DNA from: an uncultured Thermoplasmatales archaeon
GTDB taxonomy: Archaea; Thermoplasmatota; E2; UBA202; DSCA01
Assembly (NCBI GenBank): GCA_964514975.1
Contig: CAZESS010000018.1
Location: 1-48,853, forward strand
Length of the DNA stretch: 48,853 nt
Direction: 5' to 3'
This document shows, one piece after another, positions 1,321 to 48,803 of this stretch. Under the pieces are notes generated by a model, which did no database searches, had not been told where the DNA came from, and worked only from the letters and a program-made list of their open reading frames with translations. Every line of letters starts with the position of its first letter. Within the stretch, counting starts at the first letter, position 1. The position numbers and the translations under genes are program-made.

Positions 1321-2718
1321 ATGGTTTTATGCAGCCTGATGTTGTTCGTGGCCATGCGAGCGATAGCTGAGACCACGGGACGGCTGTGGAACAACCTGGT
1401 CGACCGGTTTTCTGTGCCCGAGAAGCAGTGGACGACCGTTGACTCGATGATCTATGGAATGGACTCATATTTTGACTACGACGAGGCAGGGGTCAGGGAA
1501 AAACGCACCAGGGCGCTCCGCGAGGCGTTCCTGCATCATTATTCCAACAACCTGTTCTACCACCGATACTGCAAGGACAACGACGTGCAGCCCGATGATA
1601 TAAAAGCGGAGGAGGACCTCCTGTCGATTCCGCTGGTTCCGGACACGTTTTTCAAGGACTACCCGGAGGAAAACCCCGGCAGCGTCTACGAGTGGCTATA
1701 CCGCGTATCCTCGGTGGACATCGGCGACTACGATTTCACGGGGAGCGACATGCAGGATTTTCTCCGCTGGGCGGAAAACCGCCTGCGCGGCATCGTCACC
1801 CATTCGTCGGGCACCACGGGCAACTTCAGCATCATGTTCAGAGATGAGCTGACAACCCGGCGGCTGTTCTACGCGTTTGACAAGACCCTCCTGTTCTCCA
1901 TCGTCCATCCAGACGACGACGCGCAGTTCGTGTACCCGGGCCCGGTGAAAACCTATCTCACCATGGGCCACTGGATATCCGAGGGAACCCGGATTTTCGA
2001 TAAAAGCCAGCGGCATTTTCTCACCGAGCGAGAGCTCACCATGGACATCGTCCGATTGATGTCCGGCCAGATACAGGGGTTCGCGGACAAGATGAAGCTC
2101 AAGCTGCTGCAGCGGGTCATGAAAAAAGGACAGCACAAGCTGATAAAGCTGCTACAGCAGCTCAACGAGAGCGGCAAACAGGCCATCATCCTGACGTTTC
2201 CCTTCCAGCTCTACGACCTCATGGAGATCATGCGGCAGGAAGATGTCAGCCTGTCGCTGGGCGACCAGAACAGCATCGTCATCACCGGCGGCGGATGGAA
2301 GATACACCAAAACAAAAAAGTGTCCCCGCAGACCTTCGCCGGCATGATCGAGGAAACGCTGGGTATCCCCCCGGAGCACTACAAGGACATCTACGGCATG
2401 TCCGAAATGAACGCGCTGGGCATGGACTGCGAGGGCCGCTACAAGCACCTGCATCCCTGGCTCTACCCGATGGTGCTCGACGAGGACAACCAGCCCATGG
2501 GCTACGGGGAGGATGGCCGCTTCGCGTTTCTCGACCCCGTGTCGAACAGCTATCCCGGGTTCATCATCACCGGCGACCGGGTGAGGCTGTATGAGCGCTG
2601 CCCTGCCTGCGGCCGCCCGGGCGTGGTCATGGATTCCGATATCAGCAGGATGGCCGGGGCGGAGGCGAAGGGATGCGGCAACCTGATGCGCGATCTTATC
2701 GCGGAGGAGCTGCGGTGA
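1321..2718 (+). CDS. LuxE-family acyl-protein synthetase (ANL adenylating superfamily)
   Basis: HSSGTTG loop, ITGGGWK, YGMSE, SYPGFIITGD, and C-terminal GAEAKGCG (acyl-accepting Cys position of LuxE). The start could be 1354. Confidence 0.8.
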   Translation: MVLCSLMLFVAMRAIAETTGRLWNNLVDRFSVPEKQWTTVDSMIYGMDSYFDYDEAGVREKRTRALREAFLHHYSNNLFYHRYCKDNDVQPDDIKAEEDLLSIPLVPDTFFKDYPEENPGSVYEWLYRVSSVDIGDYDFTGSDMQDFLRWAENRLRGIVTHSSGTTGNFSIMFRDELTTRRLFYAFDKTLLFSIVHPDDDAQFVYPGPVKTYLTMGHWISEGTRIFDKSQRHFLTERELTMDIVRLMSGQIQGFADKMKLKLLQRVMKKGQHKLIKLLQQLNESGKQAIILTFPFQLYDLMEIMRQEDVSLSLGDQNSIVITGGGWKIHQNKKVSPQTFAGMIEETLGIPPEHYKDIYGMSEMNALGMDCEGRYKHLHPWLYPMVLDEDNQPMGYGEDGRFAFLDPVSNSYPGFIITGDRVRLYERCPACGRPGVVMDSDISRMAGAEAKGCGNLMRDLIAEELR

Positions 2719-2722
2719 TATC

Positions 2723-3745
2723 ATGCTTGCACGACTGAGGGAGGAAATGGACAAGGGATTGTTCATCCCGCTGCCGATGCTGAAAAACTTTGCTAGATCC
2801 GTCGGCCCGCTGACCTACGTGATGGCGAAGCATCCCGGCTCGGTTATGGCGAACGTTCCGATGTGGATGAAACGCCTCCGGCAGTCCAGGCCGCCCTGGG
2901 CACATCTGGAAGAGGAGAGCAGATATGACTCCCGCCAGCTGCTGTCACCCAAAGATTATGAGGACATGCCGCCGGTCTACAGCAAAAAATATCTGCGGCC
3001 GACGCGCCTCTGTGAGAGCGACGCCCCCGAGATGCGGGCGATGGCCGTCAAGCTCGGCGCCCGCGAGAAAAGCGACCTCGCGTTTACGCGTGCGGTCTAC
3101 GAGTTCGTGAAAAACGAGAAAAAGCTGGTGTTCAAGCCGATGCGCGGCGCCCTTGGCACCTTTCGGAGCAAGGGAGGCGTCTGCCTTGATCAGCTCTCGC
3201 TGATGGCGGCGCTGCTCCGCGCCGGCGGGGTATCGGCCCGCTACCGGCTGTATGCGCTGTCTCCGACTGAGCAGTTCTATGACACGGTTATCAAGGACGA
3301 CCCGGTGCTGCGGGAAACGCTCGACATGCTCGGGTTTTTGGACTCATTGCACGGGGAGACCGAGGCGCTCGTGGACGGCAAATGGATACCGCTCGACTCG
3401 ACGTTTTCCGACGAGCTGGAGGCCGGGATGGGGCTGCCGATCACGTCGTTCGGCGAGGAGCCCATGTGGCGCGACCGGGTGCTGACCTCTGACATCCGGT
3501 TTGAGGGATTCCCGTTGATGTTCAGACACATGCTGGTCCCGGTGTTGTTTGCGCTTCGCAACACGGTCGACATGGTGAACGAGAAGCTGGACATGCTCAG
3601 GGTGCAGGGGCTGGAAATCATCGACCGGCTGGGCCGGGAGCAGTACAATGGCCAGCAGAGCTCGCATATCGAGCTGCCCTCGCTCGAAGAGGTCGAGGCC
3701 TTCCGGAACGGCGAGCCGATAACGGTGGACGCCGAGGCCGTGTAG
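2723..3745 (+). CDS. Transglutaminase-like (Cys-His-Asp) domain protein
   Basis: GGVCLDQ...AALLRAGGVSARY, SLHGETE, WIPLDST. It lies 4 nt downstream of the luxE-like stop. Confidence 0.8.
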   Translation: MLARLREEMDKGLFIPLPMLKNFARSVGPLTYVMAKHPGSVMANVPMWMKRLRQSRPPWAHLEEESRYDSRQLLSPKDYEDMPPVYSKKYLRPTRLCESDAPEMRAMAVKLGAREKSDLAFTRAVYEFVKNEKKLVFKPMRGALGTFRSKGGVCLDQLSLMAALLRAGGVSARYRLYALSPTEQFYDTVIKDDPVLRETLDMLGFLDSLHGETEALVDGKWIPLDSTFSDELEAGMGLPITSFGEEPMWRDRVLTSDIRFEGFPLMFRHMLVPVLFALRNTVDMVNEKLDMLRVQGLEIIDRLGREQYNGQQSSHIELPSLEEVEAFRNGEPITVDAEAV

Positions 3746-42067: not shown

Positions 42068-42508
42068 CTATTCCCGGACGACCATTACGGGGCCGTCGGC
42101 GTGATGCATGACCTTTTCCGACACGGAGCCGATGAGAATGCGGTCCAGGGCGGTCATGCCCTTGCTGCCCATCACGATGAGGTCGTCGCCGTCGGCGAGC
42201 TCGATAATCTCATGGTCGGGGATGCCCTCAACCATTTTTTTCTCGACCGTCACGTTTTCCTCCAGGGCCATACTCTCTATCTCGTCGAGCGCCGCCAGTC
42301 CTTCTTTTTCCAGGAAGGCGTCGATGTCAAACGAGCCGAGCTCCTCAGGCGAGGGAATCTTGGCGATGAGCGAGGAGTCAACGACGTAGAGCGCGACCAC
42401 CGGCACCCCGAGATGTTTTGCGAGATAGATGGCGGTCCGCGCCGCTTTTTTCGCCCCCTCCGAGCCGTCGATGGGCGCGATGATCCGCTTGAATACTTGT
42501 GCCATCAT
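42068..42508 (-). CDS. Universal stress protein (UspA family)
   Basis: FKRIIAPIDGS, DLIVMGSKG...IGSVSEKVMHHADGPVMVV. Confidence 0.93.
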   Translation of the reverse strand: MMAQVFKRIIAPIDGSEGAKKAARTAIYLAKHLGVPVVALYVVDSSLIAKIPSPEELGSFDIDAFLEKEGLAALDEIESMALEENVTVEKKMVEGIPDHEIIELADGDDLIVMGSKGMTALDRILIGSVSEKVMHHADGPVMVVRE

Positions 42509-42542
42509 AGGATAAATGGCCGGCGGCATTTAAATGTATGCG

Positions 42543-43697
42543 CTACAGCCCTGCCTCGTCGCGGAGCACCGGCGCCAGGTCGGTTTTCTCCCAGGTAAAA
42601 TCGGGGTCGCTGCGGCCGAAATGCCCGTAGTTGCTCGTCTTCCGGTAGATGGGGCGCAGGAGGTCGAGCTGCTCGATGATGCCCTTCGGCGTGGTCTCGA
42701 AATGCTCGTCCACCAGGTCGAGGATGTGTTCGGTGGGGATGCGCCCGGTGTCGAAGGTGTCGATCATCAGGGAGAGTGGCTCCGTGATGCCGATGACGTA
42801 GGAGAGCTGCACCTCGCACTTGTCGCAGATGCCTCCGGCAACGAGGTTCTTGGCGATGTAGCGTGCCATATATGCCGCGGACTTGTCGACCTTGGTGGGG
42901 TCCTTGCCGGAGAACGCGCCGCCGCCATGTCCTGCGACGCCGCCATAGGTGTCAGCGATGATTTTCCGCCCGGTCATGCCCACGTCCGCAACGGGGCCTC
43001 CCTTGACGAACCGGCCGGTGTTGTTGATATAAAAGCTCGTATCTTCGGTGAGCCAGTCGGCGCAGACGGGTTCGATGACCTCCCGCTGGATGTCCTCCCG
43101 GAGCCTGTTCAGCCCGACGCCGTCATCGTGCTGCGCCGCCACGACCACCGAGGTCAGATATTCCGGCTGGCCGTTTTCATAGCTGGCGGTCACCTGGGTC
43201 TTGCCGTCGGGCCGCAGATATGGCAGCACGCCCTCCTTTCGGACCTGTTCGAGGCGCCGGGCGAGCTTGTGCGCCATCATGATGGTCAGCGGCATGTATT
43301 CATCCGTCTCCGTGGTGGCATAGCCCGACATCATGCCCTGGTCGCCGGCGCCGATGTCATCCTGCCTGTTGACGCCCTGCGCGATGTCCTCCGACTGGCT
43401 GTGGATGCTGGTGAGCACCCCGACCGTGTTGTAGTCAAACCCGTAGGAGGGCTTGTCGTAGCCGACGTCGGCGATGACGTTCCGCACGATTTCGGGAATC
43501 TCAACATATGCCTCCGTGGTTATCTCGCCGCTGACGATAACGAAGCCCATCCCCGCCATGGTCTCGCAGGCCACCCTTGCATCGGTGTCCTGCTCGAGTA
43601 TCTCGTCGAGCACCGTGTCGCTTATCTTGTCACATACCTTGTCCGGATGCCCCGCCGCCATGGACTCTGAGGTAAACAGAAAGTTTCCCTTCTTCAT
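42543..43697 (-). CDS. metK: Methionine adenosyltransferase, bacterial/eukaryotic type
   Basis: [59 protein letters not shown]. Confidence 0.95.
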
Positions 43698-43782
43698 GAC
43701 CCGGAATAAAGCGCGGCAATATTAATGTAATGGTACGGGGCTAGATGCGCTCCTCCCGTCTGGTCAGGTAATAGCGCTGGAG

Positions 43783-44312
43783 ATGCGGGGGAAAATCCCG
43801 GTGGGGGACCTGAAGTTCTACCTGGACTTCCTTGAAGGCAAATCCGTCAGAGTCTACTGCGGTCCGCGGGGGGAGCGCTCCGAGATGGCCGTCAGGTTTC
43901 TCAGGGAGAACGGCATCGACGCATCGGGGGTACCGCCCGATGAGCTGGACGAGTACGAGATGGAGGGTGAGCCCATGGTGGTGGCTATCAACTATCTCTC
44001 CGTCAAGCCGGGACACGAAGAGGAATCCGAGGAACAGGTGGGGGACCTGTGCATGGACACCATGGACAAGGAGGGCTTCATCGGCACCAAGGTCGTCCGG
44101 GCCACCGATATCTCATTCGGCGGCTCCATACTCCACGGCGACTACCATGAAATCGAAATCAAGCCGGCCAAGTATATTATGCTGACCTACTGGAAAAGCC
44201 GGGAGGCGCATGAGACGTTCCATGAACACGATGACATCATGCAGGCTTCAAGGAGATGATGCCGCATATCGCCGTGATGCCCTACGAGGAGTTCGCGGAA
44301 ATCCTGCATTAG
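43783..44312 (+). pseudogene. Rhodanese-like + sulfur oxygenase reductase (SOR)-like/ABM-fold fusion, 1-nt frameshift near 44245
   Basis: VYCGPRGERS rhodanese loop, then VVAIN, LCMDT...GFIG, TYWKSREAHETFH. The C-terminus FKEMMPHIAVMPYEEFAEILH* continues in the shifted frame (44247-44312). Confidence 0.65.
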
Positions 44313-44379
44313 CGGCAGTCGCTGCTGCCGCCGCGGGCATACCACACACCAGTAACCCTATATAGAAAACAGCGATAGA

Positions 44380-45381
44380 ATGGCGATGGAATCCCGCTGT
44401 ATAGCGGTGCCCCGGCAGGAGGCAGAGGCCGTCAGGCAGCAGCTGATCGAGCAGGGCGTGCTGCGCACCGATCTTGACATACAGAGCGACGACAGATACG
44501 TCTACCTGCCCGTCTCTGCACCGGTGGATATTTTCCCCGGGGAGATGCAGCATAGAAATTTCGAGAAACGGGAACGAACGCCCGACCTCCAGGACCTGCT
44601 CGCCGACAGGCTGCCGCAGGACGTGTCGCTGTCCTCCTTCGACGTCATCGGCGACATTGCCATCGTCCGCATCCCCGACGAGGCGCTGCCATATACCGAG
44701 CAAATCGGCGAGGCAATTCTGGCGACGCATTCCAGCATCAACGTGGTCTGCCGCGACCGGGGGGTCAAAGACGAATACCGGGTTCGGGATGTCGAGGTCA
44801 TCGCCGGGGAGCAGCGCACCGAGACCATCCATGTGGAATACGGGACCGAGCTTGCCGTTGATGTCGCCATGGTCTATTTTTCGCCGCGGCTGGCCACGGA
44901 ACGGAAACGCGTCGCCGACCAGGTCATGCCGGGTGACGTGGTCATCGACATGTTCGCCGGCGTCGCACCGTTTTCCATCCTTGCCGCACGGCTGGCGCAG
45001 CCTTCGCATGTCTACGCCATCGACGTCAACCCCGCTGCTGCAGCATACGCCCGGCGCAACGTGCAGCGGAACAACGTCGCCGATGTCGTGGAGGTCATCC
45101 AGGGTGACGCGGCAGTAGTTGTCCCCCATCTTGGCCATGCAAATCACGTCATCATGAACCTGCCACATCGCGCCGACGAGTTTTTTTCGCTGGCGGTCAA
45201 CGCCGGGGACATCGTGCATTACTACGACATCGTCGAAAAAGATAGGGTGAAGCGATGTCTGGACTGGCTTGTCGAGAGGGCTGCCGGAGAAGATAAAAAA
45301 GCCGTGGTGCAGAGCTGGCGACAGATCGGCACCTACTCGCCGGTGCAGATAAAAATCGGCGTCGACCTGGCTATCGAGTGA
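44380..45381 (+). CDS. Trm5/Tyw2-family tRNA methyltransferase (class I SAM-dependent)
   Basis: SFDVIGDIAIV, ETIHVEYG, VYFSPRLATER, DMFAGVAPF, IDVNP, IMNLP. Confidence 0.9.
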   Translation: MAMESRCIAVPRQEAEAVRQQLIEQGVLRTDLDIQSDDRYVYLPVSAPVDIFPGEMQHRNFEKRERTPDLQDLLADRLPQDVSLSSFDVIGDIAIVRIPDEALPYTEQIGEAILATHSSINVVCRDRGVKDEYRVRDVEVIAGEQRTETIHVEYGTELAVDVAMVYFSPRLATERKRVADQVMPGDVVIDMFAGVAPFSILAARLAQPSHVYAIDVNPAAAAYARRNVQRNNVADVVEVIQGDAAVVVPHLGHANHVIMNLPHRADEFFSLAVNAGDIVHYYDIVEKDRVKRCLDWLVERAAGEDKKAVVQSWRQIGTYSPVQIKIGVDLAIE

Positions 45382-46423
45382 AATACCGGTGGGCGCGCTC
45401 CGCAGCGACGGCGATGAGACGGGCGCCGCGCTCCAGATCCGTGAGGTCGATGACCTCGACGCCGGAATGCATGTAGCGGGTGGGAACGCCGATGACGCCG
45501 CTGGGGATGCCCGCCCGGGCGAGATGGATGGCCGTCGCATCGGTGGTGCCGCCGGCTGACACGTCGAGCTGGATGTCAATGTTGCTGTCCCTGGCCGTGT
45601 CTTCTATCCAGGACAGCACGGGTGACGGTGTTATCAGGCCGCGGCCGGATGCATCGGTGACCGTCACCGCGGGACCCTCGCCGAGCTGGAGCGCCGACTC
45701 CTTTTTCTCGATACCGGGATGATCGCCGGCGAGCGCCGTTTCGCTGACCAGCGCCACGTCGGGATCCAGGCCATATGCGGAGGTTTTCGCTCCCTTGAGC
45801 CCGACTTCCTCCTGGACGGTGCCGACGGCGTAGAGTGTCGCATCGCCGGTATAGCACCGCACAGCCTCGATCATCATGGCCATGCCCGCGCGGTCGTCGA
45901 GCGCCTTGCCGGTCAGCCTGCCGTTTTGGAGCAGGTGGAAGCGCGGCTGCAGCGTGATAGGGGTGCCGGGGCGGACGCCGAGTGCTTCGACGGCCTCCCG
46001 GCCATCGGCGCCGATGTCGATGAACATGTCTTTTGCCTTGATGGTTTTTTCCTGCTCCTCTTTTTCCATGAGATGTGGGGGCTTGGAGCCGATGACGCCG
46101 TGGATGTCGCCCTTCTTTGTATGGAGGGTGACGCTGTTGTTGAGCAGCGTCTGGTCGAACCAGCCGCCGAAGGTGACGAAGCGGATGAAGCCATCGTCGT
46201 CGATGTACTTGGCCATCAGCCCGATTTCGTCCATGTGGGCCGCTAGCATTACTGCGGGGCTGCCACCGTTTTTGACGGCGATGAGATTGCCCATCCGGTC
46301 GTAGCGTATCTCGTCGACCATGTTCTCCAGTGCTGCATGTGCGGCCTCGCGCACCCTGTCCTCGTACCCGGAAATGCCCGGTGCGTTGGAGAGCGAGGCG
46401 AGTAGTTCTACACGTTCGTCCAT
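45371..46423 (-). CDS. M42 (TET) aminopeptidase
   Basis: GISGYE, AAHMDEIG, KALDDRAG, VQEEVGLKGA, GGTTDA, RYMHS. Confidence 0.94.
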   Translation of the reverse strand: MDERVELLASLSNAPGISGYEDRVREAAHAALENMVDEIRYDRMGNLIAVKNGGSPAVMLAAHMDEIGLMAKYIDDDGFIRFVTFGGWFDQTLLNNSVTLHTKKGDIHGVIGSKPPHLMEKEEQEKTIKAKDMFIDIGADGREAVEALGVRPGTPITLQPRFHLLQNGRLTGKALDDRAGMAMMIEAVRCYTGDATLYAVGTVQEEVGLKGAKTSAYGLDPDVALVSETALAGDHPGIEKKESALQLGEGPAVTVTDASGRGLITPSPVLSWIEDTARDSNIDIQLDVSAGGTTDATAIHLARAGIPSGVIGVPTRYMHSGVEVIDLTDLERGARLIAVAAERAHRYFTR

Positions 46424-46554
46424 GAGAGGCAAAGCCACAGAGCGTATTTAAATGTTTAAGCGTCTGCTCTGTGGCGCCACCAGGCACGGGAAAGCACAAA
46501 CTTTTTATATACCGCGGACATACACTCTTTCCGGACGGTTTTCGAGGTGTCCCT

Positions 46555-46752
46555 GTGGAGTATACACGGCTAGAAAAAGCACGCATTATCGGCGCACGAG
46601 CCCTTCAGATATCGATGGGTGCACCCCTGCTCATCAAGCAGCCCGAGGAAAAATTCACGTCTGTCGACCTGGCGTTACGGGAGCTTGAACAGGGCGTCAT
46701 TCCCATGACGGTAAAACGAAAAGGAAAAATTATAAAAGGTCCGGTCGTATAG
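46555..46752 (+). CDS. rpoK: DNA-directed RNA polymerase subunit K (Rpo6)
   Basis: YTRLEKARIIGARALQISMGAP...IPMTVKR. GTG start after SD GAGGTG. Confidence 0.95.
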   Translation: MEYTRLEKARIIGARALQISMGAPLLIKQPEEKFTSVDLALRELEQGVIPMTVKRKGKIIKGPVV

Positions 46753-46762
46753 GGGCGATTAC

Positions 46763-47392
46763 ATGGCTGAAACCATCGACGAAACCGAAACCGAAGACAA
46801 CGGCATGCTCGTATCCGAGGAAATGTACATCTCATCAGGTGCCGAGATCGGCACCCAGCAAAAAACAGCTTTTATGAAACCCTTTATCTCAAAGGTCAGA
46901 AACGACGGCCTGTATCTCATCGACATCGCCGAAACAGACCGGCGTATCAAGCAGGCAGCCCAGATGCTTGCACAGTATGACCCCAACCATGTCCTGGCGG
47001 TGGCGGTGCGGCAGTATGCCCATAAGCCGCTTTCAATGCTGGCGGAGGTCACCGGCATCAAGGCGCAGCCCGGCCGCTTCCTGCCCGGGACTCTCACCAA
47101 TCCAGATTCGGACACCTACCTGGAGCCCGACATCATCCTGCTGACAGACCCCATCGGCGACCATCAGACGCTCAAGGAAGCCGTGACCGCAGGCATCCCC
47201 GTTATTGCGCTCTGCGACACCAACAACATCACCAAGTATGTCGACCTGATCGTCCCGGTGAACAACAAGGGACGGAAATCGCTGGCGCTGACATACTGGC
47301 TGCTCGCCAGGGAGATTTTGAAGGCACGTGGCGTAATTGAGAGCAACGACGAGTTCGAGCTCCAGCCAGAGGACATGGAAGCCGAGCTGTAA
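46763..47392 (+). CDS. rps2: 30S ribosomal protein S2 (uS2)
   Basis: IGTQQKT, RNDGLY, GRFLPGTLTNP, ALCDTNN, PVNNKGRKSLAL.YWLLARE. Confidence 0.96.
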   Translation: MAETIDETETEDNGMLVSEEMYISSGAEIGTQQKTAFMKPFISKVRNDGLYLIDIAETDRRIKQAAQMLAQYDPNHVLAVAVRQYAHKPLSMLAEVTGIKAQPGRFLPGTLTNPDSDTYLEPDIILLTDPIGDHQTLKEAVTAGIPVIALCDTNNITKYVDLIVPVNNKGRKSLALTYWLLAREILKARGVIESNDEFELQPEDMEAEL

Positions 47393-47453
47393 TCGTTTTC
47401 GCGGCTCGCAGATGGCCCACATATTTATATAGGAAGTCCATATTCACCGTGCT

Positions 47454-47876
47454 ATGGCGCGGATGCATTCACGTAAAAAGGGCACCTCTTCGTCGACGCA
47501 TCCAGTCGAACGAACCCATCCCGAATGGTCGATGAACGCCACGGACATCGAAAAACGCATCGTGGAGCTCGCCCGCGAGGGACAGCCACCGGCACAAATC
47601 GGCATCACGCTCAGAGATAGCTATGGCGTCCCCGACGTTAGAGCGGCGCTCGGCAAAAAAATGAGCGACGTGCTCGCCGAGCACGACCTGCAGGGCGACA
47701 TGCCCGAGGACCTCGAAAACCTGATGGTGAAACGGGAAAACCTCCGGGAGCATCTCGCCGAAAACCGCCGCGACATCGAAAACCGCCGCAACCTCTACCT
47801 GATAGATGCGAAAATCAGGCGGCTGCTGAAATACTACAAGCGTGAGGGCGTCATCTCGCCGGACTTCCGCCTGTAA
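47454..47876 (+). CDS. rps15: 30S ribosomal protein S15 (uS15/S13e)
   Basis: MARMHSRKKG.S.S, IG..LRD.YGVPDV, PEDLENL, IRRLLKYYK. Confidence 0.96.
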   Translation: MARMHSRKKGTSSSTHPVERTHPEWSMNATDIEKRIVELAREGQPPAQIGITLRDSYGVPDVRAALGKKMSDVLAEHDLQGDMPEDLENLMVKRENLREHLAENRRDIENRRNLYLIDAKIRRLLKYYKREGVISPDFRL

Positions 47877-47878
47877 CA

Positions 47879-48616
47879 CTATTTTTTCCGCTGTCTGTCT
47901 ATCGCATCTTTCATGCCAATTTTTCCCTGGAGCACCTGCTTCGCCAGCGCCCTGGAAATGGTGACATCCTGGCTAGCTATCCGGCTGCGCCGCTGCACAT
48001 CCCGTATCTCGCCGTCCTTCGGCTCAACCGAGAGCCACCGTTCGACGGGTTTCCCCGGGGTCAGCGCGATGGCGGTAGCGGCCTGGATGTCGTCATGGGT
48101 GTTCGGCGGCGTCGTCGACGTTTCATCCACGATCTCGATTGAGGTGTCCATATCGCGGAGCATGTTGATCATCCGGTTCCTGACCAGCCGGGCACCATGG
48201 CCAACCCGGATGGTGATGTCCCGCTCGCCCCATTTTTCGACGAACGAGCGGATAAGGGAAACCGCCTCGACGGGCGACGCAGCGGTACACCGGCGGAGCG
48301 CGTTTCCCTCGTCGAAGATAGCGACGCCAGGCGTCGCACCCGGGTCCACGCCGATGACGATCTCCGCATCGGCGCTTTTCCGGTGCAATGCGACCAGTGC
48401 CCGGTCGATGAGGGTGTCCATGTCCTGCCCCGGTCGGCGGCATATCACCGTCTCGAACGGGATGGCATGCCGTTCCTGCTCGGTTGTGACGATCGCCTCG
48501 ACCGACGGAGGGATGGGCTCGTCGAAGCTGAGGGAGACAAATGGCACGTTCCGGCGATGGAGTGCCTGTAAAAGGTCATGGTAGAGGACAAAATCCGCGG
48601 TGAGCACCCCTATCAT
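47879..48616 (-). CDS. Archaeal hypothetical protein with RNase H-fold (YqgF-like) domain
   Basis: IVIGVDPGATPGVA, IRVGHG, IVDETSTT, DDIQAATAIAL. Confidence 0.7.
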   Translation of the reverse strand: MIGVLTADFVLYHDLLQALHRRNVPFVSLSFDEPIPPSVEAIVTTEQERHAIPFETVICRRPGQDMDTLIDRALVALHRKSADAEIVIGVDPGATPGVAIFDEGNALRRCTAASPVEAVSLIRSFVEKWGERDITIRVGHGARLVRNRMINMLRDMDTSIEIVDETSTTPPNTHDDIQAATAIALTPGKPVERWLSVEPKDGEIRDVQRRSRIASQDVTISRALAKQVLQGKIGMKDAIDRQRKK

Positions 48617-48803
48617 CGGCTTTTTAACATCGCCCGTTATTTAAGGTTACGGATGGCATACGGCGTGCAACGCCATCGAGAACCGGCGGGTACCGTCCCG
48701 GGCACGGCAAAGGATACCCTCTGGAAAAAACACAAAGCATATAAACCGGGATGGCTATACCGCTTCAAGGGCAAGGAGGAAAACCCTTTTTTAATTTTAT
48801 TAT

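Follow-up and report, generated by a model that had tools for sequence, protein, structure and literature searches.

The locus

The stretch of DNA analysed here (the window) covers 48,853 nt of contig CAZESS010000018.1, GenBank assembly GCA_964514975.1, from an uncultured Thermoplasmatales archaeon. At positions 43783 to 44312 it holds a plus-strand coding remnant in which a rhodanese-type segment precedes a domain of the antibiotic biosynthesis monooxygenase (ABM) superfamily that resembles the first half of sulfur oxygenase reductase (SOR). A preliminary description, made from the sequence alone, had read this remnant as a working 'half-SOR' paired with its own sulfurtransferase. That idea is largely upheld for the protein family to which the remnant belongs, but not for the window copy itself, which is very probably a dead, recently inactivated copy of a conserved 195-aa archaeal gene: a relic whose 5' end was lost to a rearrangement and whose frame is broken. 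The genome keeps an intact 195-aa paralog on contig C2. The features of the locus are listed below, with the neighbouring genes last.

43783..43971, plus strand: rhodanese-domain remnant and linker, equivalent to residues ~23-82 of the intact 195-aa protein
43858-43860, plus strand: codon of the rhodanese active-site Cys, in the loop C-G-P-R-G-E-R-S
43972..44243, plus strand: first part of the SOR-like ABM domain; Cys 44050-44052 corresponds to SOR Cys31, and His 44209-44211 and His 44221-44223 to SOR His86 and His90
44244..44245, plus strand: site of a 1-nt deletion, GG where relatives have GGG; frame lost, stop at 44257-44259
44244..44312, plus strand: last part of the ABM domain, out of frame (GFKEMMPHIAVMPYEEFAEILH, then a stop); Glu 44286-44288 corresponds to SOR Glu114
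43791..43808: rearrangement breakpoint, an 18-nt stretch common to both ancestral loci, with ATCCCGGTGGGGGA at 43795-43808
43741..43808, minus strand: orphaned 3' tail of a 166-aa membrane-protein gene (last ~19 codons, stop at 43741-43743, translation ending ...RDFPPHLQRYYLTRREERI)
42543..43697, minus strand: S-adenosylmethionine synthetase (metK)
42068..42529, minus strand: universal stress protein
44380..45381, plus strand: Trm5/Tyw2-type methyltransferase
45371..46438, minus strand: M42 peptidase

The open reading frame (ORF) at 43783..44259 of the plus strand encodes 158 aa, and both its translation and that of the shifted frame agree, at the same coordinates, with those quoted in the preliminary description. 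The ORF comprises the rhodanese-type loop VYCGPRGERS followed by the ABM-like domain (PMVVAINYLSVKPGHEE ... DLCMDT ... LTYWKSREAHETFH); the out-of-frame continuation, ...GFKEMMPHIAVMPYEEFAEILH, runs to a stop at 44310-44312. Arithmetic on the coordinates places all five catalytic-type codons (the rhodanese Cys, the ABM Cys, the two His and the Glu) exactly where they had been reported. Pfam recognises the ABM domain in the window ORF at 39.6 bits (cut-off 23.1) and finds no rhodanese match for the window piece, even at E ≤ 10. The last ABM part matches positions 172-195 of a profile of the family with E 2.6e-6.

Loss of the gene's start and reading frame

Intact homologs are 195 aa long and start MDLIIDVKTREEYYMNHIKGALNIPVWDL...; homology in the window begins only at ...IPVGDL, with an in-frame stop upstream. 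The ATG at 43783 is fortuitous, lying in foreign DNA to the left of the breakpoint. What had been described as a short rhodanese segment is instead the product of a truncation at 43791, intact members having a rhodanese domain of ~70 residues. Searched with the family profile, the genome gives four matches: the intact gene (C2:17095-17679, 376 bits), the window remnant in two frames, and a fragment matching profile positions 1-29 at C2:63442-63528. This fragment consists of an ATG and 25 family codons, reads MDMIIDVKTREEYYMNHIKGALNIP, and then passes into the antisense of another gene.

Alignments with related genomes bracket the break from both sides. Two relatives, L016 and L017, carry orthologs of the window copy. 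L016 is colinear with the C2 locus, L003, over one stretch (L016 4356-5910 = L003 3085->1512) and with the window over the next (L016 5900-10764 = window 43791-48652, 82% identity), and L017 shows the same pattern. In L109, from a same-genus genome, positions 440-1951 match L003 9-1522 and positions 1934-3447 match window 43808->42294. Homology to the locus of the intact gene in L016 and L017 begins at 43791, and homology to the membrane-protein/metK locus ends at 43808; the stretch between aligns as ATCCCGG[T/C]GGGGGA in both loci. Because the 166-aa membrane-protein gene is contiguous with metK in three same-genus genomes, we regard the reciprocal junction as proven. That gene, which belongs to no Pfam family, is a second casualty of the same rearrangement, with its head on C2 (L003 1072-1522, plus strand) and its tail in the window.

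The gene was thus very probably split after codon ~26 by a reciprocal exchange between the two ancestral loci, consistent with an inversion between inverted look-alike stretches of ~14-18 nt. This left the promoter and first codons on C2 and placed the remainder beside metK. The frame was afterwards lost through a 1-nt deletion, and several conserved residues were altered.

The deletion is evident from alignment: the window reads CAGG where L016, L017 and the intact paralog L001 have CAGGG. A single G is missing from the run at 44244-44245 relative to these relatives, in line with the earlier suggestion to repair the frame by adding 1 nt near 44245. A programmed frameshift or an alternative genetic code was considered as the cause of the frame break and rejected, because relatives simply have one more G.

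Contigs from two further sequencing runs, X2 and X3 (salt-lake or hypersaline), are 90-99% identical to the window, match it from 43791 onward only, and carry the gene's normal 5' part as a loose end together with the extra G. A G inserted behind 44243 accounts for a depth of 21.9 of 26.2 in X2 (two contigs) and for 6.85 of 6.85 in X3 (one contig), and for 0 of 16.6 in X1, the run that may be the window's source sample. A separate assembly of X1 gave a 1819-nt contig over 43679-44600 with 0 differences, in which the junction and the deletion are both present at a depth of 16.6. The relic shares 83% identity with the L016 ortholog and 65% with the genome's intact paralog (C2:17095-17679). Conserved positions are altered in it: Trp27, kept in 35 of 36 database proteins, is Gly; Phe101 (Phe21 of the set of ABM parts, A3, used below) is Ser; and the Glu before the Cys is Gly.

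These data bear on the alternative that the gene is intact in the organism and that an assembly chimera or a misread homopolymer produced the truncation and frameshift. In its favour, the bin consists of 66 contigs and has an estimated contamination of 2.9%, and the missing base falls in a G run. Further, the separate contig comes from a run possibly identical to the window's source, so that the evidence for rearrangement and frameshift rests on assemblies of possibly one sample. Yet both reciprocal junction products were assembled, on two contigs, and a second assembler reproduced the junction and the deletion. The common stretch, 18 nt with mismatches, is probably too short to mislead the usual assemblers, and the extra substitutions at conserved positions fit decay. 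We consider an artefact very unlikely.

It is hardly credible that the window ORF is still functional, whether as a truncated protein made from the ATG at 43783 or by read-through in a programmed -1 shift. The ATG-started 158-aa frame does keep both Cys and both His, but the first ~22 residues of the rhodanese fold are gone, together with any Pfam rhodanese match, strand 4 with its Glu is not in frame, and the ortholog in relatives has the extra G. No other member has this arrangement: of 74 copies extracted from other genomes, 69 are full-length in one frame, and each of the remaining five is interrupted in another way, stands at the end of a contig or is masked. The window copy is, in our reading, a well-documented gene death by microhomology-mediated rearrangement followed by a frameshift, and not a working half-SOR.

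Copies of the family gene are broken in other genomes as well (L059, L081, L088, G029:C95:4651-5227 and G006:C21:8588-9067), where the frame is lost after 35 aa, a stop comes early, the C-terminal part is missing or the gene lies in two pieces within one contig. Given these broken copies, loss of the family gene may be recurrent.

The intact family

A word-indexed protein search returned 37 proteins. Apart from P0001, which is the gene call of the window itself, these are 36 proteins, 30 of them 195 aa long, and the databases name members only 'antibiotic biosynthesis monooxygenase' or 'rhodanese-like domain-containing protein'. From a genome scan with one genome per species we kept the best 80 of 258 encoding stretches and extracted 74 (L016-L089), leaving out L090-L095 as partial or rhodanese-only matches. 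Sixty-nine of the 74 are full-length in one frame; L059 and L088 (broken early), L081 (cut short), L087 (contig end) and L061 (masked) were dropped. Among close genomes, 12 of 41 have a full-length copy, and four more have partial or split copies.

Members share one architecture, a small rhodanese domain of ~70 residues followed by one ABM-fold domain of ~115 residues, 195 aa in total. The intact paralog passes the Pfam rhodanese model PF00581 (28.6 bits, cut-off 22.2), and the family is a member of the ABM superfamily that carries a true rhodanese domain. The fusion first noticed in the window is family-wide among intact homologs. Across the 69 full-length homologs, which range down to 39% identity, 21 of 195 columns are invariant, including Cys45 of the rhodanese domain and Cys109, His162, His166 and Glu188 of the ABM domain. 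Conservation of the Cys/His/His/Glu set, which the preliminary description had singled out for checking, is therefore complete in these homologs (69/69) and holds for 35 of the 36 database proteins: rhodanese Cys in 36, ABM Cys in 36, first His in 35, second His in 36 and Glu in 36.

In 33 of the 69 homologs, among them the window's clade, the active-site loop of the rhodanese domain is longer by one residue (C-G-P-R-G-x-R); the other 36 have the usual six-residue form. An extra residue of this kind is typical of phosphatase or arsenate-reductase-type rhodanese folds, and the longer loop might change the bound anion.

A profile search of 1.84 billion representatives returned mostly rhodanese-domain matches, 1184 of them at E ≤ 0.001. 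It added two divergent full-length members, P0038 and P0039, and turned up two rhodanese-ABM fusions that are without the catalytic set (P0049 and P0070), as well as a stand-alone protein, P0181, and several fragments of chimeric appearance. The full-text literature searched for a rhodanese-ABM/SOR-like protein, supplements lying outside that search, contains no description of the family. The family is apparently undescribed and may be a new sulfur enzyme.

Several observations concern proteins at the family's edge. P0181, a stand-alone ABM protein of 126 aa, has the Cys, the His-x3-His and a GPYEPFYEVL end, and passes the Pfam SOR cut-off (28.2 bits). A word-based search with P0181 found only P0181 itself, and a word-based search for short relatives of the N-terminal half of canonical SOR found 3 SOR fragments only; neither is proof that stand-alone half-SORs are rare. 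Matches in the ESM Atlas, all with scores ≤ 0.87 and to be taken as leads only, include a 122-aa actinobacterial cluster with Pfam ABM (53% of members) and SOR (38%). Five short proteins (P0045, P0052, P0053, P0055 and P0057) end in the last ~55 residues of the family and begin with an unrelated part, which in P0053 comes from the beginning of a Sulf_transp-like membrane protein. They have the appearance of chimeras, produced by gene calling or assembly, or of further relics of rearrangement. Of the 43 ABM parts in A3, 11 also match Pfam PF22087 (CT0912-like C-terminal domain; best E 3.8e-7), another ferredoxin-like family, named from a Chlorobium protein.

Relationship to SOR

SOR is, to our knowledge, the only enzyme that both oxidises and reduces elemental sulfur, which it disproportionates with the help of O2. 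It has been described from aerobic sulfur oxidisers, as a large enzyme with two domains per subunit and 24 subunits in a hollow sphere. When the window ORF was compared by phmmer with 177,635 distinct PDB sequences, ten of its 15 matches at E ≤ 10 were SORs (best 9rdn_A, E 8.3e-6). The family profile gave 34 matches at E ≤ 10 in the PDB: 22 through the rhodanese part only, 11 to SORs (E 8.2e-7 to 1.1e-4) and one to a generic ABM protein (1iuj, E 0.82). The PDB is rich in ABM structures, as the family model's 161 Foldseek matches at E ≤ 0.001 show, yet it was SORs that were matched, and the sequence signal is therefore SOR-specific.

We then aligned 43 non-redundant ABM parts (A3) by hhalign with canonical SORs, four sequences of 306-315 aa taken from other genomes within the same phylum. 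The alignment to the N-terminal half of SOR (probability 87.7, E 3.4e-6, 107 columns) pairs the AxN, Cys, Trp, His-x3-His and P-x-E of the family with those of SOR. Residue by residue, the ABM part and the SORs of the phylum pair as Cys29/Cys31, His82/His85, His86/His89 and Glu108/Glu113, and these SOR residues correspond to Cys31, His86, His90 and Glu114 in the usual SOR numbering, the four counterparts proposed from the window sequence. The second half of SOR (residues 161-257) also aligns, with probability 94.9 and E 4.3e-8. In Pfam, 43 of 43 ABM parts match the ABM model, with scores from 39.6 to 46.5 bits, the window included (cut-off 23.1), and 43 of 43 match the SOR model at E ≤ 0.01 (best 8.9e-10). 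The SOR-like character of the domain is thus borne out by phmmer, the family profile, hhalign and Pfam alike.

The paired residues are those on which SOR depends. According to PMC7398979, the SOR alanine mutants H86A, H90A, E114A and C31A each abolish both activities, and C101A and C104A lower the activities about tenfold. On these comparisons the family is probably a SOR homolog with a retained metal/Cys site.

Several results weigh against equating the two. The Pfam ABM score lies above the Pfam SOR score; the SOR model PF07682 gives 20.1 bits for the window and 20.6 bits for its own intact copy, against a cut-off of 25; and the NCBIfam SOR equivalog NF047630 gives 12.5 to 31.3 bits, against a cut-off of 400. 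SOR's second half is absent, leaving a single ~115-residue domain that aligns with either half of SOR. The Cys101/Cys104 pair of SOR is absent as well, with no Cys aligned or conserved in that segment; hhalign bears out both absences, which the preliminary description had noted. One of the 36 database proteins, P0016, has Arg in place of the first His. The family therefore resembles the first half of SOR but is not SOR as curated, being a single domain without the CxxC, below cut-off and of a different architecture. The window's lineage had been described as not known for canonical SOR, yet the enzyme does occur in its phylum: of 301 genomes sampled there, 5 carry it, and these five belong to a single other family.

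Fold and predicted dimer

An AF2 model of the member P0002 shows a small rhodanese domain and then a beta-alpha-beta-beta-alpha-beta domain. The rhodanese part is closest to 3hix_C (Z 13.5, rmsd 1.6 over 80 residues) and PspE 2jtq (Z 13.4), and the ABM part to 3gz7_B (Z 15.5, rmsd 1.7 over 97 residues). Two aspects of the model count against the SOR relationship or limit its use: its quality is moderate (mean pLDDT 77.8, with residues 128-145 under 50), and no SOR is found among the 50 entries listed by Foldseek or VIA-align, the closest folds being generic ABM proteins. VIA-align re-examined Foldseek's best 1000 chains, and SOR may rank below the entries listed. In the structural comparison that the preliminary description had suggested, generic ABM folds thus came out on top, although the sequence signal is still SOR-specific. 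A 115-residue domain is expected to fit single-domain ABM proteins better than a 308-residue SOR chain with long insertions.

This result lends some weight to the view that the protein is an ABM enzyme whose SOR likeness reflects shared ancestry only. Its substrate would contain no sulfur, its chemistry would be that of a cofactor-free monooxygenase or of heme-degrading enzymes such as IsdG and MhuD, and its rhodanese domain would act in regulation or redox control. The top folds are generic ABM proteins and include SnoaB, LsrG, MhuD (Foldseek rank 34) and IsdI (rank 43), and Pfam ranks ABM above SOR. L063 has a weak NCBIfam match to heme-degrading HmuQ (E 0.0039, 17.4 bits, cut-off 130). IsdG-type enzymes have an Asn/Trp/His triad, which Asn89 (68 of 69 homologs), Trp156 and His166 (both 69 of 69) resemble, and the oxidative-stress and iron-storage genes found beside some copies would also fit heme or iron handling. 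But three residues that set SOR apart from generic ABM proteins (Cys of helix 1, first His and Glu of strand 4) are invariant in the 69 full-length homologs, and the invariant rhodanese Cys and thiosulfate-transporter-like neighbours point to sulfur. In the profile search of the PDB, no IsdG, MhuD or other generic ABM falls under E 0.8, whereas 11 SORs do; no IsdG, MhuD or HmuQ is among the matches at E ≤ 10 at all. We regard a purely ABM-type function as quite unlikely, and a SOR-related one as the better reading.

Predicted as a homodimer, the ABM part scores 0.57, against 0.00 for the best control; 20 of 30 solved same-chain pairs and 1 of 23 single chains reach the mark applied. Contacts agree between runs to 85% or more, the pLDDT of the partner is 81 or higher, and the predicted interface includes the Cys, both His and the Glu-bearing strand. 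ABM dimers are well represented among solved structures, and the homodimer pass may be model memory. As modelled, the ABM domain may form a homodimeric barrel.

Genomic context and hosts

We examined 18 loci with 143 neighbouring ORFs within 3.2 kb. One or two Sulf_transp (YeeE/TsuA-like) half-genes lie near seven of the 18 (L018, L022, L030, L033, L035, L046 and L048), and in L030 and L035 they form an operon-like row on the same strand. Two Sulf_transp halves also adjoin the intact copy in the window's own genome; these halves have weak matches to thiosulfate-transporter TsuA/YeeE models. Three of the 18 loci (L063, L085 and L089) sit inside clusters of rubrerythrin, desulfoferrodoxin, ferritin, peroxiredoxin, flavodiiron-like and nitroreductase genes. 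Ferredoxin-thioredoxin-reductase-like genes are also among the neighbours, as are MsrB near L071, OsmC near L052 and a PMSR-domain (peptide methionine sulfoxide reductase) gene near L035.

In four halophilic Thermoplasmatota loci a 234-aa membrane protein is encoded directly upstream (L030 5235-5936, L033 5228-5929, L035 5222-5923 and L046 5237-5938). It has weak, below-cut-off matches to ZIP metal transporters; supplying the iron site with metal is one conceivable role among others. In one Thermoplasmata bin, a heliorhodopsin gene (E 3.3e-102) occupies L035 2799-3575, 2.4 kb upstream of the family gene.

According to their record titles, the hosts are Thermoplasmatota, with many soda-lake and salt-lake bins and including Ca. 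Saliniplasma and Ca. Natronoplasma, and Ca. Methanohalarchaeum thermophilum. Further titles name Bathyarchaeia, Hermodarchaeota, Methanomassiliicoccales, Syntrophaceae/Smithellaceae, a Desulfobacteraceae bin and an Aminicenantes bin. Copies in L020, L023, L033, L036, L037 and L045 are 70-78% identical to halophilic Thermoplasmatota copies, in bins labelled Hadarchaeota, Aenigmatarchaeota, Nealsonbacteria or Thermococci. This mismatch suggests binning or labelling errors, or recent transfer.

Proposed mechanism

From the conserved residues and the domain order we infer, as the best reading, an iron-dependent enzyme that acts on persulfide supplied by its own rhodanese domain. Cys45 of the rhodanese domain would take up sulfane sulfur, for example from thiosulfate delivered by the neighbouring YeeE/TsuA-like transporter, or from polysulfide, and pass it to the ABM-domain Cys. 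This second Cys would lie beside a putative mononuclear iron held by His162, His166 and Glu188. At this site the bound persulfide might react with O2, or disproportionate, giving sulfite or thiosulfate. Since the hosts look anaerobic, we take the likely function to be the removal of O2 and reactive sulfane sulfur and not a gain of energy. Such a mechanism would parallel SOR's proposed chemistry and, by analogy only, that of bacterial persulfide dioxygenase-rhodanese fusions.

Confidence in this proposal differs from part to part. An oxygenase-type mechanism proper, in which sulfane sulfur is relayed to the iron site for oxidation or disproportionation, is offered tentatively, as a possibility that falls somewhat short of even odds. 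For the explanation as a whole, which joins the dead copy, a SOR-homologous family and a rhodanese-fed iron enzyme, we judge the chances to be about even. Two sets of observations argue the other way. Six of the 18 loci (L016, L017, L049, L053, L070 and L079), the first two of which hold the orthologs of the window copy, have neither Sulf_transp nor oxidative-stress genes nearby. The hosts, moreover, have the look of anaerobes, with methanogens, Bathyarchaeia and Syntrophaceae among the record titles, and this speaks against a main role in O2-dependent chemistry. Searches for heme-copper and bd oxidases, whose controls each detect 9 of 14 known genomes, found neither in the window's genome (98.9% complete).

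The anaerobic look of the hosts also fits a protein that carries sulfur, and perhaps iron, without being an oxygenase. Here Cys45 would relay sulfur to Cys109 for thiosulfate assimilation, cofactor synthesis or Fe-S repair, and the His/His/Glu set would hold a metal for structure, sensing or donation. Both Cys are invariant in the 69 homologs, and the YeeE/TsuA-type transporter-like, ferritin, rubrerythrin and ferredoxin-thioredoxin-reductase-like neighbours would suit a carrier; YeeE/TsuA-type transporters normally work with a small sulfur-carrier partner. But a 2-His-1-carboxylate set at the positions of the SOR iron site, invariant across homologs down to 39% identity, is more than a carrier needs, and the full-text literature searched offers no precedent for an ABM-fold sulfur carrier. 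We hold a carrier role to be rather unlikely and prefer the rhodanese-fed iron enzyme.

On a bolder reading, which we hold to be rather unlikely, strict anaerobes (methanogens, Bathyarchaeia, syntrophs and halophilic Thermoplasmatota) would have a new kind of sulfur enzyme. Its rhodanese-fed iron site would use sulfane sulfur to consume traces of O2, or would disproportionate sulfane sulfur where O2 is absent; in both cases sulfur chemistry would be tied to oxygen defence. The family suggests a sulfur/oxygen activity to seek in methanogens and other anaerobes, with oxygen-defence or thiosulfate-transporter-like neighbours depending on lineage.

Comparison with known systems

The N-terminal ~70 residues have the same fold as single-domain rhodaneses such as PspE (2jtq) and Alr3790 (3hix), with Z 13.4-13.5 and rmsd 1.5-1.6 over 80 residues, and share with them an invariant catalytic Cys and weak matches to PspE models. 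The family's domain is shorter than usual and, in 33 of 69 members, has the extra loop residue.

Persulfide dioxygenase-rhodanese fusions (ETHE1/PDO; 3r2u, 3tp9) follow the same logic, coupling sulfane-sulfur oxidation at a mononuclear non-heme iron to a rhodanese, the iron site of the present family being putative. Their rhodanese domains are among the family's PDB matches (3r2u E 4.2e-4, 3tp9 E 6.6e-4). By contrast, their catalytic fold is a metallo-beta-lactamase rather than an ABM fold, and their rhodanese domain is C-terminal, whereas that of the family is N-terminal.

ABM proteins (PF03992; 3gz7, 2omo, SnoaB 3kg0, LsrG 2gff) match the second domain in fold and size, with Z 15.5 to 12.2 over ~95 residues; the family passes the Pfam ABM cut-off and, like them, is a predicted homodimer. 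Generic ABM proteins differ in having no Cys/His/His/Glu set, in a HMMER similarity that reaches E 0.82 at best and, for those listed here, in having no rhodanese fusion.

Among families of solved structure, SOR (PF07682; 2cb2, 6m35, 9rdn) alone resembles the ABM part significantly in sequence. The two share the helix-1 Cys, the His-x3-His, the strand-4 Glu and the AxN start of strand 1, as well as the GF(L/V)G ... (G)(I/V)S..GS loop motif of SOR's second half. They differ in size and assembly, the family having one ferredoxin-like domain of ~115 residues and a predicted dimer where SOR has two such domains in ~308 residues and a 24-mer sphere. The family has no Cys101/Cys104 pair, carries a rhodanese fusion, and in most members tested falls under the curated cut-offs of both SOR models. 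Its hosts are apparent anaerobes, many of them halophiles, whereas those of SOR are aerobic thermoacidophiles. Because the family resembles both SOR halves, it is a concrete candidate for SOR evolution; that it is a free-standing homodimeric module from whose duplication the two-domain SOR arose is a speculative idea, on the unlikely side in our estimate. As a compact single-domain relative that keeps SOR's essential residues, the family would offer a minimal system for dissecting SOR chemistry.

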